Positions 23,551 to 46,880 of a stretch of DNA of 64,000 nt are shown piece by piece. Under the pieces are notes generated by a model, which did not search any database, was not told the DNA's origin, and was given only the letters and a program-made list of their open reading frames with translations. How positions within the stretch are numbered: position 1 is the first letter of the stretch; every line of letters begins with the position of its first letter. Made by a program: the position numbers and the translations under genes. This DNA is from Candidatus Chisholmbacteria bacterium (GTDB lineage Bacteria; Patescibacteriota; Microgenomatia; UBA1400; Chisholmbacteraceae), in assembly GCA_963704905.1 (NCBI GenBank), contig CAVPHZ010000001.1:323438-387437 (forward strand), given 5' to 3'.

Positions 23551-23551
23551 T

Positions 23552-27367: not shown

Positions 27368-27410
27368 TTAATATCTTCATTGAAACTTTTTTAGGTCTTG
27401 ATACCATGCA

Positions 27411-28012: not shown

Positions 28013-28053
28013 TTTTCTTGTTTCTTCTACCCGAAGCTATTATGCTGTTTGTA

Positions 28054-29795: not shown

Positions 29796-29854
29796 CAATT
29801 TTACAGAATAATGAATATTTACCAAATTTCAATTTTTAAAAATCTTCTATTTAT

Positions 29855-29925
29855 CCTCTTATCCACAAAATGATGACACTTATCCACAGTTTTATCCACA
29901 GGTTTACTCTTGACTATTCACAGTA
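29855..29925 (+). promoter_or_regulatory. DnaA-box cluster (candidate oriC part 2, dnaA-dnaN spacer)
   Basis: Three perfect TTATCCACA boxes in direct orientation at 29859-29867, 29880-29888 and 29892-29900, plus a degenerate CTATTCACA at 29914-29922, followed by an AT-rich stretch (29930-29990). Confidence 0.7.
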
Positions 29926-30033
29926 TTTTTATCAGTTGAACTTGATAAATAAATATTTTGTTGTCAACATATCCTCATTACCTACTACTAATGCTGCTAA
30001 TATTATAAATATAGTAGTTTTACGAAGGAGCAT

Positions 30034-31185
30034 ATGAAAGTAAATATCCTACAAGATAAACTCTCTAAGGGTCTGTCGTCTGTTATTCGAGTAGTGTCTT
30101 CAAGGCCTACACTTCCAATTCTCTCAAACGTTCTGATAGAGGCGAAGAGTGGAAGAGTGCTTTTATCAACAACAGATCTGAATTTAGGAATTCGATTGTG
30201 GCTAGGAGCAAAGGTTGAAGAGGAGGGAGCTGTTACTGTGCCAGCTAAAGTTATTAGCGATCTTGTTTCTTCCTTTTCACCATCAACTATTACTCTGTCT
30301 AGCGATGAATCATCTTTGAGAGTATCTGGATCTGGTCATCAAGCTCGATTAGCTGGCATACCTGCAAGTGAGTTTCCTTCACTCGGGAAAGTATCTTCAA
30401 AGAAAGGATTAAAAATTGAAACAAAGACTTTCAAACATGTTATAGAGAGAGTGGTTCTTTCTGCTTCTACGGACGAAACCCGTCCGGTGCTTTCAGGAGT
30501 GCTATGGAAATTTTCTGAAAAGCAGTTGCAATTAGTAGCTACAGATGGTTACCGTTTGAGTTTAGTGAACGTTCCTTATACAGGGAAGAGCTCACCCTCA
30601 ACGTGGCAAAAGATGGTAAAAGAAGTAGTAGGAGGAGGAGTTATCATACCTGCTAGAGCATTGAGAGACGTTGAAAAGCTGGCAGAGGAAGTTCAGGTTA
30701 AGGAAGTCGAACTAAGTCTTGCAAAGCAACAAAATCTGGCAGTTTTTTCTCTAGGAGATGCAGAGTTAACAACACGACTTATTGAAGGCACTTTCCCGAA
30801 TTTTACTCAAGTTATTCCAAAAGAAAAAGTAGGAGAGTCTACGATTGAAGTAGAGCTGCTTGAAAAGGCTGTGAAGACGGCGTCTATCTTTGCTCGTGAT
30901 AGTGCTAATATTATTCATTGGAAGATCGGCAATGATGCTTTGGTTGTCTCAGCGAACGCCCCAAGTTATGGGGAGAGCGAGAGCACTGTTGAAATTTCTT
31001 TAAAAGGAGAAGGAGGAAATATTGCATTTAATAGCCGCTATTTGATTGACTTTTTTTCAATATTTCCTTCTAAGAAAGTTTTGTTTCGAATGAAAGGAAG
31101 CTTGGATCCAGGAGTATTTCAGCCTGCTGGGAAAGAAAGAGAAGATTTTTTATATCTCATTATGCCTGTAAGAGTTCAAAAATAA
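30034..31185 (+). CDS. dnaN: DNA polymerase III beta sliding clamp
   Basis: 383 aa. MKVNILQDKLSKGLSSVIRVV...LPILSNVLIEA, and a three-domain clamp length. Confidence 0.9.
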   Translation: MKVNILQDKLSKGLSSVIRVVSSRPTLPILSNVLIEAKSGRVLLSTTDLNLGIRLWLGAKVEEEGAVTVPAKVISDLVSSFSPSTITLSSDESSLRVSGSGHQARLAGIPASEFPSLGKVSSKKGLKIETKTFKHVIERVVLSASTDETRPVLSGVLWKFSEKQLQLVATDGYRLSLVNVPYTGKSSPSTWQKMVKEVVGGGVIIPARALRDVEKLAEEVQVKEVELSLAKQQNLAVFSLGDAELTTRLIEGTFPNFTQVIPKEKVGESTIEVELLEKAVKTASIFARDSANIIHWKIGNDALVVSANAPSYGESESTVEISLKGEGGNIAFNSRYLIDFFSIFPSKKVLFRMKGSLDPGVFQPAGKEREDFLYLIMPVRVQK

Positions 31186-31219
31186 GCATATCGGTAAATG
31201 TTGACAAAGAAAAAAATGA

Positions 31220-33118
31220 TTAAAGGGGTTTTTGAGACTGTTGTTTTGGAACGGTGGCAGTTTGCATGGGTAGTTCTTCTTCCTGTTTCTTTTCAATTTC
31301 AAGAATTTCTTGGGGCTTAGTTGTAATGAGTTTGTGTTCTTCGCTTGAGGCAACAACCCTCATTGCTACGTGATTTTGACCAGCAAAAAAGAGTCCTTCG
31401 CCAATGTCAGCTGCCAAGAGAAGGTGTCTTTCTCCTTCAGAAAGGAAGAATGTTTCAGAGAGTTGTTCAATAGCTGCTGTTGATTGTTTGAAAAGAACTT
31501 GGATTGATGAGTTGGTTACTATTGCTTTTCCGTAGTCGGAATTGAGAAAATCTTCTACGTCTTGAGAAATGGTGGTCAGACCAAGATAATATTTTCTCGC
31601 CCGCTTGGCAATGGAGTAGAGAAATGTAGCAGAATCCTGGTTTTTCATTAAGTACCAAGCCTCATCAACAACAACCAACCTTCTTTTCATGTCTCTCTTC
31701 ACTTTTGTCCAGATATAATCAAGAATTATATACATAATTGTTGGTCTGGTTTCGTCTTCAACTTCTTTTAACGAGAACACTGTAAAAGAGTTTTTTAAGT
31801 CAACATTGCTTTGCTGGTCGAAGAAGCTTCGAAGTGATCCTTTTACAAACTTCTCAAGCCTATCTGCTAATCCTTTTGCAACTTGCTCTTCCATACCTAT
31901 AAGCGTTTTATAGAGATCTTCCATAAGCGGTGGTTCATTTCTTTGTGTAGAAGGATCTGGGGTGATACCCCTGGCTTTGTAGGTTGCAATCAGCGCCCGG
32001 TCAAGTATGGCTTCTTCTGAGGGGTTGACATCCCCAAGCATCACCTTTAACAACCCATGAAGAGAGAGAATTTTTAACCCCAGCTCATTTTCACCTTCTT
32101 CATAAACAGCAGATAAATCAAATGGGTTGAGTTTAGTTTGGGTGTTCAAGCTCAAGTTAATATAAGTGCCTCCTAGTGTTTCACACATCCTTTTGTATTC
32201 TTCTTCTGGATCGATGACAATTACCTCTGTTTCAAACATGAGAGACCGTAGTATTTCGAGTTTTTCAAAAAAACTTTTTCCAGATCCGCTTTTTCCAAAA
32301 ATTGCCATGTTTGCGTTTTCCATAGTGAAACGGTCAAAAATGATTAGTGAGTCGTTGTGTTCATTGATCCCATACATAATCCCTTCGTTGGCTGTTAATT
32401 CCGAAGAAGTGAAGGGAAAGGTTGTGGCGAGAGAGGTTGTATCCATGTTTCTGGTAACCACAAGCCGATCTTGGCCAAGAGGGAGTGTGGTTTTTAGACC
32501 TGCTTCCATCTGAAGAGTTGCTGCTTTTGAGATAATTAAGAGAGATCCAAGGGTGGATTGAACTTTTTTTGTCGTAGAATTTAATATTTCAAGAGAACTT
32601 GCACTTACTGTGATGTACAAACCAAACTGAAAGAAACGCTCTGCACCTTTAGCTAATTCTTGTTGGAGCCCTTTTGCATCTTCTAGTTTGATTTCTGTAT
32701 CTACGCTAGCGATATGACCGCGCTTGATGTCTGTTTCAATTTCAGCTTCCATTTCTCCAATTTTTCTTCGTAACTCGTCGAGAACTTCCCGACCTTCAAC
32801 GGGGTAGATAAACATAGAGATATCAAGAGAGTTTTCAAAGTTGATGAGGGGAGCCAGCCAGTTGGCGCTCACATACCTAGGATATCCAGCTACAAATAAC
32901 GTTCGGAGGAACATGTTTCCAACCTTGAGGTGATTGAAGTCAACGTCAATTGATTCCGGAGCAATGATGTCTTGAATTGAAACCATTCCGGATCCAAGTT
33001 GGTCTGCGGGATTTCCGGCATGTGCTTGTGGGGGGGTTGGATTTTGTAGAGTCTGTTCGCCGGCCTGCGTTTCCCTTTTTTTGTTTCTTTTTAGTGCATC
33101 TAAGATGTTTAAAGCCAT
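31220..33118 (-). CDS. VirB4/TrbE/CagE-family type IV secretion ATPase
   Basis: Walker A IFGKSGSGKSF, Walker B with the family-typical RLVVVDEAWYLM (DEAW), and a VirB4-like N-domain (LRTLFVAGYPRYV..WL). 632 aa. Confidence 0.6.
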   Translation of the reverse strand: MALNILDALKRNKKRETQAGEQTLQNPTPPQAHAGNPADQLGSGMVSIQDIIAPESIDVDFNHLKVGNMFLRTLFVAGYPRYVSANWLAPLINFENSLDISMFIYPVEGREVLDELRRKIGEMEAEIETDIKRGHIASVDTEIKLEDAKGLQQELAKGAERFFQFGLYITVSASSLEILNSTTKKVQSTLGSLLIISKAATLQMEAGLKTTLPLGQDRLVVTRNMDTTSLATTFPFTSSELTANEGIMYGINEHNDSLIIFDRFTMENANMAIFGKSGSGKSFFEKLEILRSLMFETEVIVIDPEEEYKRMCETLGGTYINLSLNTQTKLNPFDLSAVYEEGENELGLKILSLHGLLKVMLGDVNPSEEAILDRALIATYKARGITPDPSTQRNEPPLMEDLYKTLIGMEEQVAKGLADRLEKFVKGSLRSFFDQQSNVDLKNSFTVFSLKEVEDETRPTIMYIILDYIWTKVKRDMKRRLVVVDEAWYLMKNQDSATFLYSIAKRARKYYLGLTTISQDVEDFLNSDYGKAIVTNSSIQVLFKQSTAAIEQLSETFFLSEGERHLLLAADIGEGLFFAGQNHVAMRVVASSEEHKLITTKPQEILEIEKKQEEELPMQTATVPKQQSQKPL

Positions 33119-33132
33119 AATTGTTAACTCCC

Positions 33133-34107
33133 TTATTGCTCTTTAAGAGCGCTGTCTATTGTTGCTTGTATATTGTCTGTGGCTTTTGGTTGTTGAGCAG
33201 GATCTTGAGATACTATATGAGATTCACCTGATGTGGGTTGAGAAATAGCTGGCGTTTCATTGATAATTGATGACGTTTCAGGCTGGGGGGTAGGGAGTGG
33301 TGTGGGTTGGTTTGCGGGCGTAGATGTGCTTATTGGGTTTGGCGGAGGTGGTTGAGTTTTTGGTTGGCTCTCCTGGGGTAGTGGGGGTTGTTGTTGAGTG
33401 TTTATTTGAGGAACTTCTTGAAAGGCTACTGCAGGTTGAACGATAGGTGTTTCATATTCTTGGGGAGAAACTAATGTTTGACCTTGGGAGCTGTCTGGAT
33501 TGTATATTTCAAAAAGAAGCTGAATGAGCTCTTTAGTAGTGAGTTGTCTGGCTCGCAAACCAAGACGGGCAAGCTGATGTTCAACATGATCTCTTTTTGG
33601 TTCCAATGTCATTTTAGCTCGACCAATAATGTATTCTTTTGGGAAAGGAAGTCCGGTGTGACCGCCTTTTGCGATTGCTGTTGCCGACTTTGTAACTCCC
33701 AGCTCGAGAACAAAAAAAGGTATAACAATATAGAATTTTTTATCTAAAACATTTCTTTGACGGACTGTTTCCTCAATAAATTCCCTGTATTTTCTAATGC
33801 GTTCTTTGTTTTCTGGTTTTGCAGAGCGTAATTCCTGTTCCTCGAGCAACCTTTCATATCCAGTAATATCTTTTCTATTGCTTCTAATAAAAATCTGGAT
33901 AGGAAAGGTGAGTGAGTTAAGCAGAGCTGCGTAGGCATAAATTGTTGCGTCTTGCTCGGACTCAGATAAAAGACCAAAGTTCACCGCTGTGGTGGTGATT
34001 ATCATTGCAGCAGAACCATCTTTTAAAAGAATAAGATTCTCTGCAATTTCCTCGACATCGAGGTGTTGTTGAGTTGTAGATTTAATGACTTGTTTTGGGG
34101 CAGCCAT
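33133..34107 (-). CDS. hypothetical T4SS-associated protein with Pro/Gln-rich C-terminal tail
   Basis: 324 aa, immediately upstream of the VirB4-like gene. C-terminal 110 aa are low-complexity P/Q/T-rich. No motif recognised. Confidence 0.3.
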   Translation of the reverse strand: MAAPKQVIKSTTQQHLDVEEIAENLILLKDGSAAMIITTTAVNFGLLSESEQDATIYAYAALLNSLTFPIQIFIRSNRKDITGYERLLEEQELRSAKPENKERIRKYREFIEETVRQRNVLDKKFYIVIPFFVLELGVTKSATAIAKGGHTGLPFPKEYIIGRAKMTLEPKRDHVEHQLARLGLRARQLTTKELIQLLFEIYNPDSSQGQTLVSPQEYETPIVQPAVAFQEVPQINTQQQPPLPQESQPKTQPPPPNPISTSTPANQPTPLPTPQPETSSIINETPAISQPTSGESHIVSQDPAQQPKATDNIQATIDSALKEQ

Positions 34108-34119
34108 GCGTATTCTTTC

Positions 34120-35235
34120 TCAGGTTGCTTTAATTTCTATTGGTGGAACGAGATTCCCTACTAGATCGATTTTGATTATATCAAAGCTTTGTCCTTCGTG
34201 TTCAACTTCAATTTCATACATCCCGCTGGTTAGGGGGGTGGCGATAAAAAATTGTCCAAGCTTATTTGTCTTTAGTGCTCTGGCGACATTATTATCTTGA
34301 TCTCTTATGGTGAGAATGGCACCTTCAACAATACTACCAAGTTTGTCGACAACCATCCCAACCAATACATTTGGGGTGATTGGAGGAGTAGGAATGGGGA
34401 GTTTTGGTTTGATGGTTGCCTGGGTTGTTTTGTAGGGTTCTCTATCAATTTTTATAACCCCGGTAGGTGATAGTTTTCCAATATCATATTGTTTATCTTC
34501 CTCATTTTGACCATTAGCGATTATGACGGGCGGAACTGGTATTTTTTCAGCTTTTACAATATTAAGAGGTTCGGCAATGGGCATGTCCAGCTTTTTCAAT
34601 CCCGCTCTTGACCTCTTGGGAAGTATCACCTCTCCCCGCATAATTGCTTTCGGATTCAGAGGGGGGGATTTTAGTTTTCTTACCTTCACCTTCACATCTG
34701 CTGCTTGTTCAAGATCTTCAGCCACTTGTCGCTGAGGTTTCACTTTAGTTATGTGTGTCGGTTGGACTTCTGTATACATTTTCATGATGTCACTAACAAA
34801 ATGATTTTCCTTGTTGTCAAGGTTAGTTTGCGGTCCCAGGCTCGGTAGTGTTTCTAAATAGGCCTTAAGTTTTTTTCTATCACTTTGCTCAGTCTCAGTT
34901 TCTTCATATTTTTTTATTTTTACTGTTTCGAAAAATCTCGGCATGATTGTTTGTTTTCTCCAGACGAATTTGGTTGGAGAGTAGATGGCTTTAATGAAGG
35001 CCACCAACCATCTATCTAGCGGGCGTTCCTCGAGGGGTAGAAACGCAAACGCTACTCCCAAAAAAACAGAAAATATTATTAATGGCCAGCGGATGATGCT
35101 TGACACCGGAAGGGAATAAATAATCCAAGCGACAATGATGCCAGCGATAAGTTCGAGAAATTGCTTGATGGTCATGTCGCCAATCAAGCGAAAGTGGTAT
35201 GAGGAGATTTGTTGTGGAACTGGGTGTTGTTCCAT
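34120..35235 (-). CDS. membrane protein with two N-terminal TM helices and C-terminal beta-sandwich-like domain (possible VirB3-like anchor)
   Basis: The N-terminus has two TM helices separated by a short loop (IIVAWIIYSLPV...LIIFSVFLGVAFAFLPL) followed by PLDRWL, reminiscent of VirB3/PrgI-type proteins next to VirB4. C-terminal about 90 aa resemble a carboxypeptidase-regulatory-like beta-sandwich. Confidence 0.35.
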   Translation of the reverse strand: MEQHPVPQQISSYHFRLIGDMTIKQFLELIAGIIVAWIIYSLPVSSIIRWPLIIFSVFLGVAFAFLPLEERPLDRWLVAFIKAIYSPTKFVWRKQTIMPRFFETVKIKKYEETETEQSDRKKLKAYLETLPSLGPQTNLDNKENHFVSDIMKMYTEVQPTHITKVKPQRQVAEDLEQAADVKVKVRKLKSPPLNPKAIMRGEVILPKRSRAGLKKLDMPIAEPLNIVKAEKIPVPPVIIANGQNEEDKQYDIGKLSPTGVIKIDREPYKTTQATIKPKLPIPTPPITPNVLVGMVVDKLGSIVEGAILTIRDQDNNVARALKTNKLGQFFIATPLTSGMYEIEVEHEGQSFDIIKIDLVGNLVPPIEIKAT

Positions 35236-35331
35236 GATTATTGGTTTTGTACTTTCAATCTGTTCTACTTGTTTATCAAGTTCATTTCATTATAACAAGG
35301 GAGGAAGGGGTGGGCTAGGGCTGGTGGATGG

Positions 35332-36372
35332 CTACTCTGAATAGAGAAGCGGGGAATCAATGGCAGGCAGATAAAGCGTTGCATCCAACTCATCGGGGTA
35401 GGTTGTAGTTTTAATTTTTCCGGTAAAGAGAAACACTGGCTGGTAAATATTGTTTTTCAACTCGTCTGAAAAATAAGCAATTTCAACCCTCTCTATACTT
35501 ACATAGACTATATCATTGCTTTGCGGTTCATAATATTCTACGCTGGTTGAAATTAAACTTGCTACAGGTAAGGCAAGCCGCATTGCTTCAAAGGATTTAA
35601 TGGGATATTTTTTGTCGCTTACTTCATAGTTAATATCTTTTTTTAGCTTTATTTCTAAGGGGGTTCCATCCGGAAATATTGACACCGTGGTGAGTGAAAG
35701 ATTTGGTTCCAACCCAATTAATTTATATGGCTGATTACCAGATTTAAAATTAACGGTTGCGATGTTGGCATTTTCCTTTGAGGATCGTTTTAGGTCGTCG
35801 CTATTCTCAGAGAAAATATAACTTATATCGATGGGATTCGTTTCTTCGTCTGGATCAATGAAACCCTTTTTTATCATTGCATCTTTTGCGGTAGCGATGA
35901 TTTCTGTATCACGCTTCTTGTCAAACAAACCTTTAATTGGATATCCACCACCCAACGTGTAGTGTATTTCGTTGGTGATGCCAGAGATTGTTAGCGCATC
36001 TGAGAGCTGGACCCAAATATAAACATTTTCTCCTTGAGGACTTTGGATAATTCTTGGAGCTTCTATGAACCCTGCTCTTTTTGCAATGTCAACGGCTTGT
36101 TCTTGGGTTATGTTTGAAGAGTTACTCACCATTAGAAGTGGAAGCTCTTTTGGGAGATTAACATCTTTTTCGGTGAGAGCAAGCTGTATGGGGAAGAACC
36201 CACCAGTGAAGGCTGGAATGGTCGGTACTGCCTGAAGAAGCGGATCTTGTTGTAGGGGCTCTCCTGACGCTGGTTTATTAGATTGGGTGAATATCCACAG
36301 TAATATAGCAATGGTTGCGAGAAAAACGACGAGGAGGACGGTTAAAATGAATTTTCGATTAAATTTCATCAT
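35332..36372 (-). CDS. bitopic membrane-anchored extracytoplasmic protein, hypothetical (VirB8-like topology?)
   Basis: 346 aa. N-terminal TM (FILTVLLVVFLATIAILLWIF), rest predicted outside. No motif. Confidence 0.3.
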   Translation of the reverse strand: MMKFNRKFILTVLLVVFLATIAILLWIFTQSNKPASGEPLQQDPLLQAVPTIPAFTGGFFPIQLALTEKDVNLPKELPLLMVSNSSNITQEQAVDIAKRAGFIEAPRIIQSPQGENVYIWVQLSDALTISGITNEIHYTLGGGYPIKGLFDKKRDTEIIATAKDAMIKKGFIDPDEETNPIDISYIFSENSDDLKRSSKENANIATVNFKSGNQPYKLIGLEPNLSLTTVSIFPDGTPLEIKLKKDINYEVSDKKYPIKSFEAMRLALPVASLISTSVEYYEPQSNDIVYVSIERVEIAYFSDELKNNIYQPVFLFTGKIKTTTYPDELDATLYLPAIDSPLLYSE

Positions 36373-36384
36373 GTTGATTATAAA

Positions 36385-39300
36385 CTACGGGATTCTACTG
36401 GGATTTCCCGACGTATCTATGCAGGCAATTCCTCGATAATTGCAACACCCTCTTGGGAGTACAAATTCTGGAATATTTGGAGGTTCCATGGGCAGAACTC
36501 CCCCACGAACTTCATAATGCAAGTGGTTGTTTTCTGGACCCGTGCCGGTGTTTGACGTGTGTCCTACGGTGGTGCCGTAGTTTACAGGACCATTAGGCAC
36601 TCTAGTATCTGATCTAAGATGGGCATATCTGGTTGTAAATGGTTGTCCGTTGCATACCCCCGTTACATCGACATACGAACCATAATTACCACTGGAACCC
36701 TGAGCTGCAGTGCCTTGATGGGTGGCAATAACTGCGGCGCCGACAAGTTGTTGTGACGGTGTTTGTCCGAAAATATCGAGAGCAGATTCGAGGGCTCCGT
36801 GAGTGCAGATGCCTCGGTTCCCTTGGGTTATGCGGAGGAATGACATGCCAGCTGGAGGTAAAACCGGCCAACCAAACGGACAGTCATCAGGAGGGTTTCC
36901 AATCATGACACAGGCAACAGAGGTAGATGAATCCCTTCCCGCCACCGTATCGGCGGTGACTGTGAAATTATCACAGACAAAAGAGTCAGCGTATTGGGTT
37001 CCAAGATCGACAGCGTACGTCAGTGAATATGTGCTTCCATCAAGAATAGGAGTGAGTGGCGGGCTTGGTATGGTGGTAGATGGAGGTCCGGCGAGCAGAG
37101 GGTCCTGGCGGATGGTATAGGTGTTGTTGAAGGCGATGTTTGCAAGGTCGCTACCCTGGGCAGTAATGGTGACGGTGTAGGTTATTGTTGCTGGAAGATT
37201 GCTATTGCTTACAATTCTGTCTGGATTTGCATTTTTTACTACACCGATATACTGCGACTGCTCGGTTCCATACCCAGAACCTAGCCCGTACCCTAAATAG
37301 GGAATGACCTCTGTGGGTGGAACGTGAAACACCCCCAGCATTACCGTATAGACAAATAGAGCCATAACAATGACATAGCCAATAGAGCCAACGGAGGTAA
37401 GGTACAGCCAGCGGGGGGTGGTGTTTGATGTGGCCTCAAGCATTACCTGCTCGGCTTTGGCGAGGGATTTGGTGGAGGTTTTGAGGGTTTCACCGGCTAA
37501 TGCATTAACTGCACGAACTGCATTTGAGAATGCATTTTTGATGAGGTTGGAGGTTCCATTAATAAGGTTTGCAACCGGCCCTTCAATGAAGGTGTAATGT
37601 CTTGCAATATAGATGAGCTGCTTGCCGGTGGTTATTGGTTGGAGGATGAGATTTTTTGCTCCTGCGACAATGTTGGTGGCGAAATTTACAACTCCAGCTA
37701 CAACCGATCCAACCCACCCCAGTGCCGCTGATTTGATGGCTGTCCAAATTACTCTTCCTAAGCTTTTCCAAAACAACCTCATAACCAGCCAGCGCTTGAA
37801 TTTCTTGATGAGCTTTCTGCGGAATTCATAGCCGGCTTTTGCGCCAAACCCTCCCCCAGCTACACCACCAACTATTCCACCCAAAACGGCACCAATTGCG
37901 GTACCGATAACCGGGACCACAGAGCCAATCAGTCCGCCAACCAATGCTCCAACGGCTGCTCCTCCCGTTGCCCCAACAGCTGCTCCAGCTACAGTCATGC
38001 CGGTGTCGGCAACTGTTCCCATAAGACGAAGGCTGCCCTTTATCGGATCCCGAAGACCTTCTTTGATTGCCTCTTTATAATCCTTGGCAAGACCTTTTAT
38101 GGCTTGGAACATCTTCCCCAAACCTCTTTCAATTAGCTCTTGAGCAATAACAATTAGAATTCCAACGCCGGTTCCGGCTAGCGCGAGCTGCTCGATTTTT
38201 TTAACAAGTCCGCCAAGACCAACCTTAATGAGAGCTTTGGCTGCAAGTTGACCTAACTTGAGCATGAGTTTTTTGACGAGGCGTTTGATTGGATCGGTGA
38301 CTTTGCTGACTACCTTTTTTACTGCTGTTTTAGCCTTGCCATATACCTGCTTTATGGGAGTTGTTACCTTAGAAACAAGCTTTCTTACCGGGGAAGTTAG
38401 TCGTCTGGCTGCGGCAGACACCTTTGATCTGACTTGACGCACCTGTCTTCTGATTGGTGCGGTTAGTTTGCGAACCGCTTTGCGGACAGGTGCGGTTGCT
38501 TTCCGGTAAGCCATTTTAGTTGGATTGTTTATCCAGTCTCTGGCTTCACGGAATGACTTGATGTTCTTTTCGTCGAAGAGAAAGCCGTACTTTTGGGCGG
38601 CTTTACTATCAATTTTTCTAAGCGCCCGGGTGTCGATTTGGTCTTTATTGATATAGACGCGTTTTTTGGTTTTGGGATCGTAGACAGTGAAGGACTCGAT
38701 GGAGTCCAGTTTTACATCTTTTGGCCGTTGAATGCGGGTTCCATACTGGAAGGTTGGCATGGCGGCGTTGTCTGGCAGGTTGGGATCAGATTCTTTGGTG
38801 CGATTGTGAACTACAATTTTGATGTGTTTTTCACCGTTTATCTCAATCGGTTGTTTAAGATGAATGGTGGTTGGCTGACGGTCGTTTGATTCATCCGCCA
38901 CCGAGACTTCGACATCTTTTTCAATTTCATTTTTTACATGCTCTGAAAATCGCTCATATTTATCTAACACACTGTTGATCTCACCCGAAAGTCCTCCAAC
39001 TGATTGGGCTCTGCTTTTCAGTGATCCGCTTTCCATCACGCCGTCGGTTAGTTGTTCTTGCTGCTGACTTGAAAGATCATCGGTGTTTCTATCGATGGCT
39101 GTTTGGACCATGGCCCGCTGGGCTTCCGGTGATGGTTCGGCTCCGTTTCTTAGGGCTTCTTGGTCAACTTTGCTTCTTATGTCTCTGGCAATTTGCCGGC
39201 TGGTTTCCCGATCAATATCGTGTTGGTGCAACCTATCACGAATGTCTTTTTCCACGGTTTTGGTAGATGGAAGAGAGAGATCAAGGTCTTTGAGGTAGCC

Positions 39301-39729
39301 GGGTATTTCACCGAGAGCTGCTTGAAGGCTTCTTTGTTCTGCGGCGAGATCGAATGAGCCGGCTACGGCGGAGGCAACCTGTGCCCGACGGTTTTTTGGG
39401 AGGATCTCGTCGAATTCGACATTGTTTTGCGCATATTCATTGGCCGCTTTTAATACCGCTTCGCTTATACTTTCTCTGGTTAGGTTTTCTTTGGGGAGAA
39501 ATAAAGGAGTTCGTTGGGCTATCACATAGGCCGCTTTATGCGCATGGGAATCTCTGAATTCTTGGAGGAATACGGTCGAGATGTATGGTGTGGCAGCTTT
39601 GGCGTAGCCCGTTCTAATTTTCTCACCTATTCTGGTGAGGTTCTGATGCTTTTTTTTTAGCAGAGCACCTTGGTCTGCAGAAGCGTTTTGAGATGGTGAT
39701 GATGTTGTTGAGCTAGTGCTGTCCGGCAT
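36385..39729 (-). CDS. giant multidomain membrane protein: basic amphipathic tandem repeats, Gly-rich polytopic region, C-terminal M23-family peptidase-like domain
   Basis: 1114 aa. Residues 400-490 carry degenerate 11-residue-period repeats (TAPVRKAVRKL / TAPIRRQVRQV / TSPVRKLVSKV / TTPIKQVYGKA / TDPIKRLVKKL). A central region has many Gly/Ala-rich TM helices (VirB6/TrbL-like). C-terminus has ...HTSNTGTGPENNHLHYEVRGG, resembling the M23 (LytM) HxH zinc motif. Confidence 0.45.
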   Translation of the reverse strand: MPDSTSSTTSSPSQNASADQGALLKKKHQNLTRIGEKIRTGYAKAATPYISTVFLQEFRDSHAHKAAYVIAQRTPLFLPKENLTRESISEAVLKAANEYAQNNVEFDEILPKNRRAQVASAVAGSFDLAAEQRSLQAALGEIPGYLKDLDLSLPSTKTVEKDIRDRLHQHDIDRETSRQIARDIRSKVDQEALRNGAEPSPEAQRAMVQTAIDRNTDDLSSQQQEQLTDGVMESGSLKSRAQSVGGLSGEINSVLDKYERFSEHVKNEIEKDVEVSVADESNDRQPTTIHLKQPIEINGEKHIKIVVHNRTKESDPNLPDNAAMPTFQYGTRIQRPKDVKLDSIESFTVYDPKTKKRVYINKDQIDTRALRKIDSKAAQKYGFLFDEKNIKSFREARDWINNPTKMAYRKATAPVRKAVRKLTAPIRRQVRQVRSKVSAAARRLTSPVRKLVSKVTTPIKQVYGKAKTAVKKVVSKVTDPIKRLVKKLMLKLGQLAAKALIKVGLGGLVKKIEQLALAGTGVGILIVIAQELIERGLGKMFQAIKGLAKDYKEAIKEGLRDPIKGSLRLMGTVADTGMTVAGAAVGATGGAAVGALVGGLIGSVVPVIGTAIGAVLGGIVGGVAGGGFGAKAGYEFRRKLIKKFKRWLVMRLFWKSLGRVIWTAIKSAALGWVGSVVAGVVNFATNIVAGAKNLILQPITTGKQLIYIARHYTFIEGPVANLINGTSNLIKNAFSNAVRAVNALAGETLKTSTKSLAKAEQVMLEATSNTTPRWLYLTSVGSIGYVIVMALFVYTVMLGVFHVPPTEVIPYLGYGLGSGYGTEQSQYIGVVKNANPDRIVSNSNLPATITYTVTITAQGSDLANIAFNNTYTIRQDPLLAGPPSTTIPSPPLTPILDGSTYSLTYAVDLGTQYADSFVCDNFTVTADTVAGRDSSTSVACVMIGNPPDDCPFGWPVLPPAGMSFLRITQGNRGICTHGALESALDIFGQTPSQQLVGAAVIATHQGTAAQGSSGNYGSYVDVTGVCNGQPFTTRYAHLRSDTRVPNGPVNYGTTVGHTSNTGTGPENNHLHYEVRGGVLPMEPPNIPEFVLPRGCCNYRGIACIDTSGNPSRIP

Positions 39730-39816
39730 GCGTTGGGTTAATTTTGATCATCATAGCAAACTTCTTTGAGTGGTGGCTAGAGGTTGTCTGGTATACTAGC
39801 GGAAAGGAGCGGATAT

Positions 39817-40143
39817 ATGGACGAGCAAGGAACAGGTTACGTACCAGAATCAGCAGCTATCCCAGAATCGGAGCGGTGGAAATCATATGAGTTCATCGCC
39901 GAGAAGTTGGGTTTGTCGGCTGATCGGTTGCGAAGACTACTTAACACAAAGAAGGTTGATGGAAGGAAGATTCGAAAGACCCAACGCAATCCCGGGTTTC
40001 CGTTCCGATGGGTGACTACGGAGCGCAACGTGGCGAAATATCTTTCCAGCAAGCTGACGCCATCTGAATATGGGAAAAAAGGCGGTCGGCCGAGAAAGAC
40101 AGAGATCGGACGTCGGGGAGTGGTTTTTCAAGCAAGTTCGTAG
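39817..40143 (+). CDS. small basic protein with HTH-like segment (putative DNA-binding regulator)
   Basis: Start at the internal Met (MDEQGT), preceded by GGAAAGGAG. ERWKSYEFIAEKLGLSADRLRRLLNT resembles a helix-turn-helix. Very basic C-terminus. Divergent from the island operon. Confidence 0.3.
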   Translation: MDEQGTGYVPESAAIPESERWKSYEFIAEKLGLSADRLRRLLNTKKVDGRKIRKTQRNPGFPFRWVTTERNVAKYLSSKLTPSEYGKKGGRPRKTEIGRRGVVFQASS

Positions 40144-40225
40144 TATTTTCACGGTTGTAGTATCAAAAAAAGAAGTGTAACCTTGGTTGAAGAAAGTAAG
40201 TAATACTCTTGGGATTTATTAGTGG

Positions 40226-40254
40226 TTGACCCTTTCAGGAATTTATGGTAGAAT
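40226..40254 (+). promoter_or_regulatory. putative sigma70 promoter for the 1283-aa gene
   Basis: TTGACC (40226-40231), 17-bp spacer, TAGAAT (40249-40254). Confidence 0.4.
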
Positions 40255-40338
40255 TCGGTTCTTGTTAGGGTAATACAATTGTTTGCAGGTTTCGTAGAAA
40301 GTGGATAGTAATTGGTGTAGCATTTAGATAGGAGCAGT

Positions 40339-43300
40339 ATGAGCGAAGAAAAAGAACGATCTGAAGAAAAAGGCAAAACAGAAAGAGGGAAGAAACCTTC
40401 TGGATCTCAAGAAAAGGAAAAGAAGGAAAGCTCTGTGCGCAGAAGAGGGAAACAGCAAAAAGAAACGAGCGCTCCACAGCCTCCATCAACGCAGCCAGAA
40501 CAAACAGTTTATGAGCGAGGCGACAAATTCCAGGGTGTAAATGAGAAAGACCGGAAGAATGCCGGTCAGCTTACCGAGAAGATGCTTCAGAGCGCAGTCG
40601 GCGAAGCTATGAAGGCAGGCGTTGAGGTTAACGGCAAGAAGATTCAGGCTGAAGATTTTGATCGGCTCAAAGCACTGCTTTTCAGAAAAAAAGAGGTGGA
40701 TGAAGAGGAAGAGAAATCACTGCTTGAATTGCTCCTGGCACTGCTTCAATTTCTTTATGAACAGATCAAACAAGCGATTTTTGGCGATAAAGACGACCAC
40801 AAGGCAATAGTTGAGACAGCGAAGGCGTTTGGAATCGGAGATGATTCCAAAGAAATCATGAAATGGGTTACCAGCATATTTACCTTTTCCGAGGAGGGTG
40901 AGGCAGAGCTACAGAAAAACGTTGACCGTTACCTTGCCGATGAGCAAGACGTTCCAGTTCCTGATGAACAGATGTTGGAAGCGTGGAGAAAGAGAGGGTG
41001 GACTGAAGGTGATATCCAGCGTGTCCTTAAAGAAGGAAAACGAGGAGGAACTTCAGGTCCAGCGGACGGTGAGGATATTGATGTAATGATTGATGCAATG
41101 AGTGATGATGAAGTAGCCCGTATTGCAGCCCGGGGAGATCGGACACTTGCCACTGCTGATATCTGGCAGCAGTATTTTGCCCAATCCAGACAAGGAGACC
41201 AAGCTGTAAGCTTAAATCCTTTGCAAGCGACGCTTGACGAACAAGTAAAACGACTCAAACAAGCCCAGGAGATTGGTGACCAAGCTCGGGAAAAACACCT
41301 ACAAAGAGAAGTTGCCAAGTCAATTCTTCTGCTGGAGCGGATGGCACCAGCCAGGAAAAGTAATAATGGAGAAGATGTTGAGCGACAAATGGGATTGTAT
41401 GGACCGCGGGCGGTTGATTTGATGAGGAGAATTACTGAACTTCGCAAAGTAGGTGTTTATGCTGCGCTGACTGCACGTGAGGCTGATATTCGTGCGATAC
41501 AGATTGAGGGAGATACGGGTGATTCATTAAAAGTTCAAACAGGACATGGAGAAGAAATATTTCAGTCTGGAGAGAGCGAGGTTGGTAAAAAATTGCTTCG
41601 AGATGTAGCTTTGGTGCAGGCCGGTAACCTGAGCGTAGATGAGTTTAGGGAGTCGTTACGAGTGAATTATATTAAACCTGTTTATGAGGAAGTTATTGGT
41701 GATGCCGAAGAGGATCCAAGGCAGGGATTCAAGATGGAGTCTTGGGGGCATATCCTAATGGGAGAGCTGTTTGAGTCGGTTAAAGAAGCTGGCTACTATG
41801 GTGATCGCGAGAAACAACGCCTGAGCAGCTCTTTGTATGCTCGGCAAATCAGCTCACTGCTTAATGCTGATGCAAATAAAGGTGCGAGCATCACCGATAT
41901 GCACAAGAAGGCTGACCAGCTGTTTTTATCTGAAGATTACGACACGATGATGCGTACAGAGCCGGGGTTGGGGGCAGCACGCAGGCGTCTTGAAGCAGTC
42001 TTCAGCCTAGTACAAATGGATCCCAACAACCGCTACCGAATGCCATATAAAGAATTTATTGCTGATCCAGAAGGAAACTTCGAGGCACCACACATACAAC
42101 GAATGGTATCGGAAACACTCTTGCAACAGCAAGGTGAAGGGATTTTGAGGAACTCGCTTGACCAGAAGGTTTCAATTAAACGGAAAGAGGCTGCGCGGAT
42201 TGCCGGACAGGCGATGAGCGTTTCCAACTCTATGCTGCGGACGACTGAACGGATGTCGACGAGCTTGCTTGCACCTCGAGAAGGTGGGGAGTTTTTAATC
42301 AGCACACCGCATGATAAAGCCAGATATGACACGCTGCGCATGTCCGGAGAACGGTTTGAGACGTATGGCCGTGGCCGGGAGGCAATCAAGCCATTGGTTG
42401 ACCGAATGCGACAAGCTGTTCAGCCAGGGGTGTATGAGCCATTACCCGGTAATGGCGGGTTTGGCGTTGACCGATGGGAGTTGAACCCGGAAAACTTGTT
42501 TAAAATCGGAGGGAATTATAGTGCCTCTCATTGGAGAGCACATAAGGCAACTGAACAACAGCGAGCACGTGGATTGGCTTTGGGATTGAAACTCTATGAG
42601 CCGGATGCAAACAAAGCTGATTTATGGAGACAGGTTGGGGAGCGACTGCCGACAGTGGTTGCGCGATATTTTCCCACATTAGCGCTTGAGAATGCGAAGG
42701 ATAAAATTCACTATTTTGATTTTGAAGCACGGCTCCGCAGCGATGTCATTTCAGGAGGGGAAAAGGAAAGTTTTTTGAGGTATGTACAAACCAGAAGAGA
42801 CGCGCTCTTGAAAGACAAAAAAGAAGATCATCTCGGTGAAATTTCTAGTGAAATAACAAAAGATATTGAATCCCGAATTCTGCGGGGTGTATCCAAGGAC
42901 ACAGCAAAGAATAAAGAGGATCTCAAAAAAGCAGTGGCTGGTTTTAGAGCCAGTGGAGAATATACGTTGGATGGCAAGCTTGGGCGGGTTTTTCAAGAAA
43001 AAGTGGAGCAACGCCAAAGAGAACTGTACCTTCAAGAAGGCGCGCGGATTAGTTTTCTATGGATGGTAGCTAAAGAAACAGGCACAGAGATGAATTTGAA
43101 TACACCTGAATGGGAGGGGAAAGCCTGGGAGCGATGGGTTGAGATTGAGAACAAATTGGCGATTTTGCAGGAAAAGAAACTACAAGAATTTTTATTTGAG
43201 CGGAAAGAAGAGTACCAGGATGCAGATGGAATAGCGCAAAGTGCCTACGATGCAGGGCATGATGCTAGTTGGAGGATTTTAGACGATCCTACTTTAACTG

Positions 43301-44190
43301 AGGGAGTGAAAAACGTTGTCCGTCGGCTGACTTTCCTTGGAAATAATGACATTTCTGAGCGTGATTACACCACTTTTCACCAACAAGTATTAGGTTTATC
43401 CGATGAAGAGATTAATACAGAATTGGATTTGCACGATGATTATCAGGTTTCAAGTAGCAACAGGGAGGCAAAACGAAACGCTGTTCTTTGGAAAAGACTT
43501 GATAAAGAGAAGAAAAGAGGAGCGGAGCGGCTGGCGAGCGTGGAGTTTAGCTTTACGCCGTTTTTAGATGATGTTGCGCACGAGAAAGAGGAGTGGAAGG
43601 AGATCGGACCGAGGGGTGTATCTCGAAGATATGCTGACAATGAGATGTACCAAAACGCCCAATCGGCGTTCTGGAAGATTTCTAATAACCTGATGGTTGG
43701 TGACGACCGGGCCCCGCAAGACCGAGCTGAATTGGTGAAAAATTTGACTGAGTTTCAAAACATCATGCAGTATCTTTCTGAGTCTGATCGGCAGAAGATA
43801 ACCGCTTCGCTTGCGTACAATGTGGTTAATAATCTTTATAAGGCAGATAAATGGACGAACATTCCCTTTTTTGGCCCAGTGATCGACTGGGGAGGACCTT
43901 GGGGATTGTGGAAGTTTGCTGGAGTGTCTTCTCCTGCACAGCGGAAGTTTGGATACGATGCAATGAGCATGACTGCTTTAGAACGCTACCAATTCATAAA
44001 TGATTTACGCCCACTGATAGGTAATGAGTGGGCAGATAAGCTGATGAAAGATACTAAATCACGGTTTCGAAATGTGGTTTACGAGTTAGTTAACCAATAT
44101 TCGCTTCCAGGTGCAATAGCATCAGCTTGGTACCTGGCGAAACCATTTTTTACGGAATTAGCGGCGTATATGAAGCAGGATTTTCAGTAG
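40339..44190 (+). CDS. very large, highly charged soluble protein of unknown function
   Basis: 1283 aa, Lys/Glu/Arg-rich, with a low-complexity N-terminus (EEKERSEEKGKTERGKK). No TM, no nucleotide-binding or relaxase HUH motif seen. Confidence 0.35.
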   Translation: MSEEKERSEEKGKTERGKKPSGSQEKEKKESSVRRRGKQQKETSAPQPPSTQPEQTVYERGDKFQGVNEKDRKNAGQLTEKMLQSAVGEAMKAGVEVNGKKIQAEDFDRLKALLFRKKEVDEEEEKSLLELLLALLQFLYEQIKQAIFGDKDDHKAIVETAKAFGIGDDSKEIMKWVTSIFTFSEEGEAELQKNVDRYLADEQDVPVPDEQMLEAWRKRGWTEGDIQRVLKEGKRGGTSGPADGEDIDVMIDAMSDDEVARIAARGDRTLATADIWQQYFAQSRQGDQAVSLNPLQATLDEQVKRLKQAQEIGDQAREKHLQREVAKSILLLERMAPARKSNNGEDVERQMGLYGPRAVDLMRRITELRKVGVYAALTAREADIRAIQIEGDTGDSLKVQTGHGEEIFQSGESEVGKKLLRDVALVQAGNLSVDEFRESLRVNYIKPVYEEVIGDAEEDPRQGFKMESWGHILMGELFESVKEAGYYGDREKQRLSSSLYARQISSLLNADANKGASITDMHKKADQLFLSEDYDTMMRTEPGLGAARRRLEAVFSLVQMDPNNRYRMPYKEFIADPEGNFEAPHIQRMVSETLLQQQGEGILRNSLDQKVSIKRKEAARIAGQAMSVSNSMLRTTERMSTSLLAPREGGEFLISTPHDKARYDTLRMSGERFETYGRGREAIKPLVDRMRQAVQPGVYEPLPGNGGFGVDRWELNPENLFKIGGNYSASHWRAHKATEQQRARGLALGLKLYEPDANKADLWRQVGERLPTVVARYFPTLALENAKDKIHYFDFEARLRSDVISGGEKESFLRYVQTRRDALLKDKKEDHLGEISSEITKDIESRILRGVSKDTAKNKEDLKKAVAGFRASGEYTLDGKLGRVFQEKVEQRQRELYLQEGARISFLWMVAKETGTEMNLNTPEWEGKAWERWVEIENKLAILQEKKLQEFLFERKEEYQDADGIAQSAYDAGHDASWRILDDPTLTEGVKNVVRRLTFLGNNDISERDYTTFHQQVLGLSDEEINTELDLHDDYQVSSSNREAKRNAVLWKRLDKEKKRGAERLASVEFSFTPFLDDVAHEKEEWKEIGPRGVSRRYADNEMYQNAQSAFWKISNNLMVGDDRAPQDRAELVKNLTEFQNIMQYLSESDRQKITASLAYNVVNNLYKADKWTNIPFFGPVIDWGGPWGLWKFAGVSSPAQRKFGYDAMSMTALERYQFINDLRPLIGNEWADKLMKDTKSRFRNVVYELVNQYSLPGAIASAWYLAKPFFTELAAYMKQDFQ

Positions 44191-44201
44191 TACTTCTTTT
44201 C

Positions 44202-45695
44202 TTATTTTCTTCGAGTTTCACCGGCGAGTGATTCAATCTTCTGGGCAACGTAGGTTCTGGCTCCGGAGGAGATTCCACCCGCCACACCTCGTACCGGGGC
44301 TGTGGCTACCCTAGCTCCAGCGGCAATTGGAGCAAAGATGCCGGCGGCCGGTATTCCTTTGGCTTTCAGCGCTTGCTGGAGCGTGGTTACCAGCTGGGGG
44401 GTAAAGAGGATGAAACCATATCCTATTAAAGCGAGGACAGATTCGACGTCTGTGGTAAAGCCGATGAAAGGCGGAAGCCAACCTTCACCACTATCTCTAA
44501 TGACTGAACTGGTTATTCCCCACTCATCTCTTCCTAAAGAACAACGGTCTGGATCACTTGAAGTACATGGACCCATGAGAATAGCTCCAATGAGGAGGAG
44601 GGCTGCAGCGGCAGGAAAGACAAGAACATTGGCGAGGAAATTTCGAGCCCAACTGCTGAAGCTGTCTGATCCAGGCAGAGCATTGGGAAGGATCATCAAC
44701 GGAGAGAAGATGGTCAGCATGATGATTTTTACATAGGACATGAGCAACTGGAAAAAGAGACGGAAGGCGGCAAACAGAAGTGCAACCGACATGATGACGG
44801 TGACAAATGCGTCTCCGACGATTCCGACGATAAAGCCAATGGTGTCGTTGTCAAACACGTTCTCAATGATATTTCTGATTTGATCTCCTGCGGTGTCCCC
44901 GGAAACCGTGTCAAAGCCTTTAAAGAGAATGGTAAAGATGTTTTCACCGATGAATACCTGGCGCGGTGCGGAGGCACTCGTTAGGAGCCCTTGAGTGTAT
45001 AGTGTTGAGATGACGAGATAGATGCCGAGGTAGATGAGGTCGACGAAAAAGCCTGCTATCGCAAAGGAAAAAGTGATGAGCAGCAAAGTGACCACAAGTT
45101 TTGGGAGCGAGTTTTGAAGGTTGACCACGGTTTGAGGGTCAAGCTGAGCGCGAAACATGATCATAAATCCAATGAAGATAAAGATGATCACGTAGGCAAG
45201 ATAGGCGATGTTTCTAAACGCAGCCCAGAGATCTGTCAAAGGAAGGAGGGCACGATAGCCGGTGCTCTGCGCATAGGCAGGTTCAACCGGGTTTATTTTG
45301 CGAGCGACGTATTGAATATATTGTCCTGAAGAAACAGGCCGTTCGGCGATAAGTCCGGCGATGAAGCCTCCGGCGAATTGTACTGCACCTGGCCGTCTAT
45401 AGCTGAATGGAGTCGGGTCTGCTGTGGGATGCTCAGTGGTTCTGAATGTCGAGGTACTGGTGGTGTTTAAGATTGCATTTACGATAGCAGTAACTGTGCA
45501 CTCAAGACCCACGTTTCCGTCAGCACATTCTTGCAGCGCCAAGTCGTGTTCGGCTGAGCTGGGCTGAAACCATAGGCTTTGGGCAAATATTGGTATGGAA
45601 AAGAGGGTGAATAACACGATGAGAACAGCAACGATTTTCCAGAGTGGTTTGTTGAGAACATTTCTGAGCCAGCGCAGGTGTTTCATCAGCGTCAT
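44202..45695 (-). CDS. polytopic membrane protein (VirB6/TrbL-like candidate)
   Basis: 497 aa with an N-terminal signal/TM and at least six further hydrophobic helices, in a T4SS-like context. Confidence 0.35.
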   Translation of the reverse strand: MTLMKHLRWLRNVLNKPLWKIVAVLIVLFTLFSIPIFAQSLWFQPSSAEHDLALQECADGNVGLECTVTAIVNAILNTTSTSTFRTTEHPTADPTPFSYRRPGAVQFAGGFIAGLIAERPVSSGQYIQYVARKINPVEPAYAQSTGYRALLPLTDLWAAFRNIAYLAYVIIFIFIGFMIMFRAQLDPQTVVNLQNSLPKLVVTLLLITFSFAIAGFFVDLIYLGIYLVISTLYTQGLLTSASAPRQVFIGENIFTILFKGFDTVSGDTAGDQIRNIIENVFDNDTIGFIVGIVGDAFVTVIMSVALLFAAFRLFFQLLMSYVKIIMLTIFSPLMILPNALPGSDSFSSWARNFLANVLVFPAAAALLLIGAILMGPCTSSDPDRCSLGRDEWGITSSVIRDSGEGWLPPFIGFTTDVESVLALIGYGFILFTPQLVTTLQQALKAKGIPAAGIFAPIAAGARVATAPVRGVAGGISSGARTYVAQKIESLAGETRRK

Positions 45696-45746
45696 TGTAG
45701 ATCACAGCATTCGTATGAGTCAAATGTTGAGACTCTGTTTATTGTA

Positions 45747-46877: not shown

Positions 46878-46880
46878 TTG

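Follow-up and report, generated by a model that had tools for sequence, protein, structure and literature searches.

Type IV secretion systems (T4SSs) specific to Patescibacteria have been described as relatives of the monoderm MPF-FATA class, often encoded near dnaA/dnaN and devoid of relaxase and coupling protein (Quinonero-Coronel et al., 2025; PMC12102498). In Microgenomatia, pilin arrays abound and VirB6 is scarce; VirB1 homologues are mostly unlinked to virB4, with few linked ones outside Paceibacteria. CONJScan-type VirB1 profiles seldom give virB4-linked matches in these classes, and it was suggested that VirB1 may be dispensable for pilus biogenesis; a peptidase and a lysozyme encoded downstream of virB4 are essential in Southlakia (PMC12102498). 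Here, we analyzed a gene of a Candidatus Chisholmbacteria bacterium that encodes a 1114-residue protein beside such a machine, within a stretch of 64,000 nucleotides (contig CAVPHZ010000001.1, positions 323,438 to 387,437), to which we refer as the window.

The closest described locus is that of Candidatus Southlakia epibionticum ML1 (Saccharimonadia), which was characterized by transposon sequencing and structure-based annotation (Wang et al., 2023; PMC10633639, Tables S1/S2). Its gene order comprises SEML1_0010 (PrgI) and SEML1_0009/0008 (a split VirB4), followed by SEML1_0007, an essential gene of 3342 bp encoding 1113 aa with an ECOD Hedgehog/DD-peptidase assignment at residues 951-1105 and an M23-domain protein among its AlphaFold-database neighbours. 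SEML1_0006 combines two lysozyme folds with a cysteine proteinase (PMC10633639). To grow as an epibiont, Southlakia requires its T4SS genes. Among monoderm conjugation systems, PrgK of pCF10 has an intracellular N-terminal domain, one transmembrane (TM) helix, and extracellular LytM (degenerate), muramidase and CHAP domains, and it is docked to the channel via the VirB8-like PrgL (PMC11323569).

The protein encoded in the window is, in our judgement, rather likely to be a dedicated, membrane-anchored peptidoglycan endopeptidase of a monoderm-type (MPF-FATA-like) T4SS-like apparatus that lies beside the replication origin of Microgenomates/Woesebacteria-type Patescibacteria. It is best read as a functional analogue of VirB1 and PrgK, not as a VirB6 homologue. 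The gene is a single open reading frame (ORF) with an ATG start at 36385-39729 on the minus strand; its extent agrees with the first-pass annotation, in which the strand had not been given.

The C-terminal part carries the enzymatic assignment. The Peptidase_M23 profile (PF01551) matches aa 997-1079 with 32.4 bits against a gathering score of 28.7 (expectation value, E, of 1.1e-7), homologues reach 66 bits, and the match contains the motif NNHLHYEV with H1069 and H1071, a motif that the first-pass annotation had likened to the LytM/M23 HxH zinc site. The best sequence relatives in the PDB are Csd2/TagE (5j1l, E 3.7e-6), NMB0315 and ShyA, and H1069-L-H1071 and H1037 correspond in the alignment to HLHYE and YAHL of the M23 chains 5j1l and 3slu. 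The Pfam match begins after the first zinc motif. An exhaustive HMMER search found 1028 representatives with E<=1e-3, of which 56 reached E<=1e-30; nearly all of the top 150 relatives align over aa ~780-1100, starting at the last TM helix and running to the C-terminus, and the module of TM helix, beta-sandwich and M23 domain is common to at least 150 clusters formed at 50% identity. Word-indexed homology searches with the full length, aa 1-830 or the N-domain alignment found the query alone, as Gly/Ala-rich words probably saturate the candidates. In the alignment of the module, the five predicted catalytic residues are conserved in about 97-99% of 149 relatives, namely H977 in 145, D985, H1037 and H1069 in 148 each, and H1071 in 147.

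The fold of this region points in the same direction. An AlphaFold2 model of aa 770-1114, built on a 17-sequence alignment with a mean predicted local distance difference test (pLDDT) score of 80.9, comprises the TM helix, a disordered linker (aa ~800-822), a beta-sandwich (aa ~828-943) and an M23 beta-domain; in the sequence, a Thr/Pro-rich stretch separates the hydrophobic segments from the C-terminal domain. Foldseek retrieved 2hsi, 5j1l, 6u2a, 7qrl, 6smk and 4qpb with a probability of 1.0 and E of about 2e-5, and all structures at that probability were M23 structures. In Foldseek, the beta-sandwich weakly matches the beta-sandwiches of GAE, TRAP and CLIPPER, a generic Ig-like/E-set type. 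By profile, alignment and model, the C-terminus is thus a genuine M23/LytM-type peptidase domain with an intact predicted catalytic set.

The gene context links this peptidase to the T4SS. Our gene is the first of a tightly packed minus-strand operon followed by unk346, a PrgI/VirB3-like gene, the N-terminal part of VirB4 (324 aa) and the VirB4 ATPase (632 aa, 410 bits to the CD1110 family). The intergenic gaps are 12-14 nt, with 12 nt between its stop and unk346, and yidC, jag, dnaA and dnaN mark the window, which belongs to a contig of 772,908 bp, as a chromosomal origin region. A scan of species-representative genomes with a 5-sequence alignment yielded 12 loci, several titled Woesebacteria, Microgenomates or Patescibacteria and one only 'bacterium'; a Woesebacteria member (L003) is annotated merely as 'peptidase M23' (AKM83099.1). 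VirB4 lies immediately upstream of the family member at 10/10 loci with a readable upstream flank, a homologue of unk346 lies downstream at 10 of 11, and dnaN lies beyond the unk346 position at all 11. The order at L001-L011 is PrgI-VirB4N-VirB4C-M23-partner. The window and an orthologous locus, L013, whose head is not M23, have the order M23-partner-PrgI-VirB4N-VirB4C, an identical gene set in which the two halves of the block have changed places, and both orders end at dnaN on the opposite strand. Five of the loci (L002, L004, L007, L010 and L012) come from automated third-party-annotation bins titled 'uncultured Gammaproteobacteria' that nonetheless show the Patescibacteria-type PrgI-VirB4-M23-dnaN arrangement; these labels look wrong.

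The regions of the protein, in order from its N-terminus, are as follows.

36385..39729, minus strand: whole ORF, 1114 aa, predicted T4SS-associated membrane-anchored M23 peptidase (ORF listing, Pfam M23 match, conserved T4SS-gene synteny)
38965..39657, minus strand: N-terminal all-alpha domain, aa ~25-255, predicted cytoplasmic (AlphaFold2; conserved blocks in two alignments)
38647..38907, minus strand: beta-rich insert, aa ~275-361, present only in this protein and P0003 (alignment; strands in a low-confidence model)
38200..38523, minus strand: basic repeats, aa ~403-510, predicted long 3-11 amphipathic helix (periodicity and moment statistics; low-confidence helix model)
38128..38199, minus strand: hydrophobic segment A, aa 511-534, with a conserved G-x-G...QE, membrane-spanning or interfacial (hydropathy; invariant G521, G523, Q530 and E531)
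37840..37995, minus strand: glycine-zipper hairpin, aa 579-630, probably two TM helices (hydropathy, GxxxG, invariant glycines, YiaD and PHROG matches)
37738..37839, minus strand: strongly basic loop, aa 631-664, 11 K/R against 1 D/E, predicted cytoplasmic (charge count)
37312..37410, minus strand: last TM helix, aa 774-806, predicted N-in/C-out, followed by a conserved VPP motif (hydropathy 2.35; model helix; positive-inside bias)
36901..37248, minus strand: Ig-like/E-set beta-sandwich, aa 828-943, putative extracytoplasmic spacer or wall-binding domain (model pLDDT about 79-96)
36388..36897, minus strand: M23 domain, aa ~945-1114, with H977, D985, H1037, H1069 and H1071 and Cys 950, 1026, 1095 and 1103 (Pfam, PDB, alignment, model)

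The M23 domain is predicted to be extracytoplasmic. Hydropathy delineates Gly/Ala-rich hydrophobic segments at aa 511-534, 579-630, about 665-691 and 774-806, which amount to 3-5 segments; the Gly/Ala-rich helices of the first-pass annotation are present, although not as the 'many' announced there. Over 140 relatives, the 15-residue flanks of the last TM helix hold on average 2.57 K+R upstream against 0.56 downstream (Wilcoxon p=8e-18), and in our protein the 24 residues after this helix contain no K/R. All of its 8 cysteines fall within aa 919-1103, and C950, C1026, C1095 and C1103 are at least 93% conserved. Taken together with the missing signal peptide, the charge bias and the cysteine distribution support a predicted topology with the N-terminus inside and the beta-sandwich-M23 module outside. 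In the simplest predicted arrangement, the N-terminus is inside, the zipper forms a hairpin (aa 579-601/604-630), the basic loop returns inside and the last TM helix runs from inside to outside; the segments at aa 511-534 and 665-691 may be further crossings. The zipper segment has 13 GxxxG pairs within 60 residues, 13 of its glycines (aa 579-633) are invariant among the 8 closest relatives, and NCBIfam gives a weak glycine-zipper match to YiaD; by sequence, it qualifies as a conserved glycine zipper. Numerous members of the family possess a single TM helix, and the shortest, such as P0055 (321 aa), consist of one TM helix and the beta-sandwich/M23 module.

The N-terminal half is soluble in character, as had been proposed. 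Residues 1-400 have a net charge of -1 and no hydrophobic segment, and no signal peptide was seen in them. The full-length AlphaFold2 model is weak (pLDDT 49.7) and was used for secondary structure and for the confident N-domain alone, an all-alpha domain (aa ~25-255, pLDDT 82-93). This domain is kept only within the close subfamily. It found no fold match in the PDB with Foldseek, and the full-length model gave no significant Foldseek match.

The tandem basic repeats of about 11 residues described in the first-pass annotation proved to be statistically significant. T-x-P-[IV]-[RK] starts occur at aa 412, 423, 445, 456 and 478. For lags of 11, 22 and 33 residues, the residue-class autocorrelation peaks at 0.49, 0.44 and 0.44 (maximum of 1000 shuffles, 0.416), and the net charge of aa 400-520 is +30. 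Over 102 residues, the hydrophobic moment reaches 0.48 at 98.2 degrees, corresponding to 3 turns per 11 residues, against a shuffle maximum of 0.30 and only 0.22 at 95 degrees and 0.27 at 100 degrees for the same residues. In the repeat register, hydrophobic residues occupy positions 4, 7, 8 and 11, K/R positions 5, 6, 9 and 10, and Pro position 3 in 5/8 units. The full-length model renders the region as one helix (aa 403-502), albeit with low confidence. Residues ~403-510 therefore carry the sequence signature of a '3-11' amphipathic helix of about 100 residues with an all-cationic polar face. No tandem repeat was found at the DNA level over the coding region of the repeats, so the 11-residue periodicity is old and upheld at the protein level. 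The very basic 3-11 helix and the dense glycine zipper are confined to a close subfamily of 8 representatives and do not extend to the whole family. Apolipoprotein, alpha-synuclein and perilipin repeats share with it the strict 11-residue period, the 3-11 moment and the proline punctuation, but the polar face here is purely cationic, without acidic residues, and the ApoLp-III match in Pfam is weak and sub-threshold. The likeness is an analogy of helix type and implies no homology.

The neighbouring features on which the following comparisons draw are listed below.

35332..36372, minus strand: unk346, 346 aa, bitopic (TM aa 4-32), without known domain, travels with M23 heads (ORF listing, profile scans, related loci)
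34120..35235, minus strand: PrgI/VirB3-like protein, 371 aa, with a C-terminal CarboxypepD_reg domain (profile match)
31220..34107, minus strand: VirB4 split in two ORFs, N part 33133-34107 (TrsD/TraC-like) and ATPase 31220-33118
44202..45695, minus strand: separate VirB6-like polytopic protein, 497 aa, six TM-like segments (profile matches)
48820-49290, 50147-50533, 50906-51346 and 51365-51802, minus strand: four divergent T4SS_pilin (PF18895, VirB2-like) genes (Pfam)

For unk346 there was no Pfam, NCBIfam or PHROG match, and the profile of its family found no PDB relative. The CarboxypepD_reg (prealbumin-like) domain of the PrgI/VirB3-like protein comes after the second hydrophobic segment; in Southlakia, a prealbumin-like fold is encoded by a separate gene of the cluster, SEML1_0004. 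The split of VirB4 is common to most related loci and to Southlakia, and L001 and L002 apparently have one long ORF.

On the other side of our gene lie a small divergent ORF, a 1283-aa protein, the VirB6-like gene, two Cys-rich anchored proteins and the four pilin genes, an array as reported for Microgenomatia and Saccharimonadia. The small ORF (39784-40143, plus strand) lies in a divergent intergenic region of 609 nt and hints weakly at HTH_36. Over its last 60 residues it shares 38% identity with an ORF of 68 aa that L013 has in this place, and another assembly of the same sequence has a called gene of 108 aa here; the ORF may encode a local regulator. The 1283-aa protein (40339-44190, plus strand), divergent from our gene, is soluble, highly charged and Cys-free and had no match in Pfam, NCBIfam or PHROGs; the strongest GC skew of the window (about 0.21-0.26) lies over this stretch. 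Between the VirB6-like gene and the pilins, 45747-46877 and 46881-48719 (minus strand) encode two signal-anchored proteins without known family, with 19 and 23 cysteines, which probably belong to the same machine as secreted or surface components. An extracytoplasmic function (ECF)-type sigma factor gene follows the pilin array (51834-52397, plus strand). Farther away, 53120-58392 (plus strand) holds a mevalonate-pathway-like block (HMG-CoA reductase, an HMG-CoA synthase-like/ACP_syn_III gene, thiolase, NUDIX and GHMP kinase), notable in a genome of possibly well under 1 Mb.

The GC content of our gene (0.483) exceeds that of unk346, PrgI and VirB4 (0.397-0.415). Over window positions 36001-48000, which cover our gene, the 1283-aa gene and the VirB6-like gene, it is 0.46-0.50, against 0.35-0.42 in the adjoining operon genes and dnaA/dnaN (18001-36000). 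Gly/Ala codons account for the excess only partly because the N-terminal third of our gene also has 0.468. Promoter and terminator scans gave nothing above shuffle expectation, and the whole window contains no tRNA genes and no Rfam family at the gathering threshold. The genes scanned included no relaxase, coupling protein, integrase or phage gene, and the chromosomal position beside dnaN is conserved across species; on these grounds, a prophage or an integrative and conjugative element as the origin of the cluster was rejected.

The central region resembles phage tape-measure proteins. Among PHROG profiles, phrog_167 (tape-measure) matches in two stretches, with E 2.9e-12 over aa 490-752; phrog_794, phrog_58 and phrog_1047 match the central region as well, and phrog_4070 also matches the protein; these families are annotated as tail tape-measure or tail-associated lysin and also match the close homologues. 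In phrog_167, the glycine-zipper part (profile about 575-813) precedes the M23 part (about 1210-1284), the same order as in our protein. The matched regions are compositionally biased, tblastn of aa 412-808 against 50,697 phage and 72,556 plasmid records returned nothing, and a PDB sequence search with the central region matched no chain. The likeness is thus an architectural resemblance on sequence profiles and possibly distant homology, but not membership. Co-linear matches over the basic helix/zipper and M23, and a place in machines that move macromolecules across a cell wall, are common to both, whereas our protein lacks BLAST-level similarity and a phage gene context and looks like a resident membrane protein.

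The locus L013 provides a comparison within one orthologous operon, as its gene order is exactly that of the window. Its protein P0003 shares aa 5-820 with ours, including the beta-rich insert, the repeats and the zipper, and differs at the C-terminus, where a weak Amidase_2 match (E 1.9e-4, below threshold) is found and the only PDB matches are two muramoyl-alanine amidases (E about 0.2). Identities between L013 and the window are 88% for VirB4C, 65% for the dnaN fragment, 63% for VirB4N, 56% for PrgI and 33% for the shared part of our protein, the chassis that bears a different head; the downstream gene, which encodes 389 aa in L013, shows no identity, and its hhalign probability of 5.8% reflects the TM anchor only. 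Over the ten M23-type loci, mean pairwise distances are 0.54 for the M23 module, 0.69 for unk346 and 0.26 for VirB4C. M23 and unk346 distances correlate after control for VirB4C (partial r 0.56, permutation p about 4e-4, 10 taxa), a co-variation to be taken as no more than suggestive, since VirB4C may represent the phylogeny poorly.

How could such a protein work as a T4SS endopeptidase? The N-terminal 500 residues would stay cytoplasmic, comprising the alpha-helical domain and the 3-11 helix of about 100 residues, whose periodicity and +30 charge suggest that it probably rests against the inner, anionic membrane face. The glycine-zipper hairpin and the last TM helix would anchor the protein in an N-in/C-out orientation and probably oligomerise it. 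Outside, the flexible linker would display the Ig-like beta-sandwich and the M23 domain, a putative zinc endopeptidase judging by sequence and fold. The head could then cut peptide cross-links locally so that the T4SS or pilus passes the wall, with the cytoplasmic and membrane chassis tethering the enzyme to the co-transcribed VirB4/VirB3/VirB6 platform. The downstream bitopic unk346 may serve as a head-specific partner, be it a regulator, an inhibitor or an adaptor.

Other explanations have to be weighed against this one. The first-pass annotation had taken the membrane region for a VirB6/TrbL channel subunit fused to a VirB1-like hydrolase, an arrangement it considered uncommon. Several Gly/Ala-rich hydrophobic segments do precede the hydrolase, and recognisable VirB6 homologues are reported as scarce in Microgenomatia (PMC12102498). 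However, TrbL/VirB6 profiles of Pfam and NCBIfam do not match our protein even at E<=1, and hhalign of the membrane core (8 sequences) against the VirB6-like family of the cluster gives a probability of 0.2%. The six-TM VirB6-like gene sits elsewhere in the same cluster, 4.5 kb away, with matches to TrbL_4 (E 7e-4) and the MMCAP2_0566 conjugal-transfer family (E 2e-6). With one pair of the few hydrophobic segments forming the zipper hairpin, and single-TM relatives being frequent, we rejected a VirB6/TrbL identity, and the fusion is scarcely credible. The VirB1-like, wall-cutting half of that proposal is plausible in the T4SS context with its conserved PrgI/VirB4 synteny. The arrangement is only partly uncommon, given the clusters that share the module and the 1113-aa Southlakia counterpart already listed as essential. 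A housekeeping factor of division or wall remodelling, of the EnvC/NlpD/ShyA type and merely beside T4SS genes, would be in keeping with M23 enzymes commonly acting in cell separation and with Csd1/2, DipM, ShyA and EnvC as nearest solved relatives. The adjacency to VirB4/PrgI in every related locus with a readable flank, despite the permuted order, the short gaps, which indicate an operon, and the lack of FtsEX or LysM/coiled-coil architecture in Pfam make it highly improbable. Siphophage tape-measure proteins and podophage ejection proteins have been proposed to open conduits, and by analogy a phage-derived helix, zipper and M23 module could be extruded or inserted into a neighbour's membrane to form a translocon. 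The PHROG matches in the central region of our protein and its close homologues, the zipper-then-M23 order of phrog_167, and the M23 fold itself speak for this idea; in a viral-library fold search, the fold matched M23 domains of tape-measure, tail, internal and lysin proteins, and it is found in virion proteins including tape-measure and internal/ejection proteins (PMC12002296). Yet the searches of phage, plasmid and PDB records were empty, the profile matches cover Gly/Ala/Lys-rich helices, and the five flanking cluster proteins scanned had no PHROG match, their surroundings being T4SS and replication genes in a chromosomal operon conserved across species. As the charge distribution also fits a resident N-in/C-out membrane protein, we regard the translocon as improbable.

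Some points count against the T4SS endopeptidase reading. The assignment draws on comparisons of sequence, models and gene context of this protein and of Microgenomates, and the membrane crossings may number 3 or 5. Known T4SS hydrolases have a single-TM anchor; the chassis here goes far beyond it, an elaboration for which this reading offers no explanation. The first zinc motif is H-x7-D here and [ST]-H-x3-E-A-I-D (H-x6-D) in most relatives, as opposed to the canonical H-x3-D, which P0004-P0008 retain as H-x-G-[IV]-D. Moreover, the M23 module and unk346 evolve 2-2.7 times faster than VirB4, and head and partner were replaced together at L013, which fits a host-directed, effector-like role at least as well as housekeeping assembly. 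The head could accordingly be a weapon that attacks the host wall at the epibiont-host contact, with heads swapped to match host wall chemistry and the bitopic partner providing immunity or specificity, as in polymorphic effector-immunity pairs. The Amidase_2-like head and the partner unrelated beyond its TM anchor in an otherwise orthologous operon, the M15-like Southlakia head with yet another downstream gene, the correlated and elevated M23 and unk346 distances, and the essentiality of T4SS genes for epibiotic growth in Southlakia would all suit it. On the other hand, a polytopic protein whose cytoplasmic domain is large would be expected to remain in the membrane of the producer, the reach of the linker and beta-sandwich is only short, and no cleavage or secretion signal was identified in it. 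The head swap is known from one representative with a sub-threshold Amidase_2 match, the correlation (a Mantel result) may reflect phylogeny poorly captured by the slow VirB4C, and ordinary conjugative T4SS hydrolases swap catalytic domains too. We consider a host-directed weapon possible, though on balance unlikely. More speculatively, and with somewhat less confidence still, hydrolase and bitopic partner might form a polymorphic, fast-evolving T4SS module in which a tape-measure-like chassis carries interchangeable heads (M23, Amidase_2-like, M15-like), each with its own immunity or specificity partner, that would breach the host wall at the epibiont-host junction and help to set host range.

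The membrane-anchored T4SS endopeptidase, which we favour, bears on a machine that is essential for epibiotic growth in the one Patescibacteria system tested. In the Woesebacteria/Microgenomates-type loci examined, a predicted, non-homologous M23 endopeptidase consistently lies in the virB4 operon and would fill the VirB1 gap. It is a concrete candidate with predicted catalytic residues, a predicted topology and a candidate partner protein. The replacement of head and partner raises the question of whether the machine acts on the symbiont's own wall or on that of the host, and the tape-measure-like chassis, whether monoderm T4SS hydrolases borrowed wall-penetration modules from phages.

T4SS-linked wall hydrolases are known already, and so is the 'peptidase next to virB4' of Patescibacteria. 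In the literature searched, the M23-headed polytopic form that combines a cationic 3-11 helix with a glycine zipper, the non-canonical H-x6/7-D motif, and the replacement of head plus partner between orthologous operons appear to be undescribed. VirB1 of Gram-negative T4SSs shares with our protein the presumed local lysis of the wall for machine assembly; it is, however, a soluble periplasmic lytic transglycosylase without relationship in sequence or fold. PrgK, a DELTA-class hydrolase, and likewise TraG of pIP501, serve monoderm T4SSs with an intracellular N-terminal domain, a membrane anchor and an extracellular hydrolase, as predicted here. PrgK differs in its metal-free LytM domain, its one TM helix and its reliance on muramidase and CHAP domains, whereas our protein has 3-5 hydrophobic segments, the basic helix of 100 residues and all M23 catalytic residues. 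Pfam and NCBIfam detected M23 only, and no glycosidase (SLT, muramidase or glucosaminidase) or CHAP/NlpC-P60 domain; the protein is therefore no sequence-family member of the ALPHA, BETA or DELTA hydrolase classes. A T4SS operon surrounds the gene in the window, at the related loci and at L013, and the N-in anchor with an extracytoplasmic hydrolase is predicted. The likeness to the monoderm T4SS hydrolases PrgK, TraG-pIP501, CwlT and TcpG is functional and architectural. The closest comparison, by published annotation, is SEML1_0007, which has nearly the same length (1113 vs 1114 aa), lies beside PrgI and a split VirB4 near dnaA/dnaN, and holds its peptidase head in the last ~160 residues. It differs by the M15-like (Hedgehog/DD-peptidase) head in place of M23, by its position downstream of VirB4 where our gene is first in the operon, and by a lysozyme/CHAP neighbour where ours has unk346. 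By this analogy, the protein described here is the M23-headed counterpart of the SEML1_0007 class, which had been flagged as essential but left uncharacterised.

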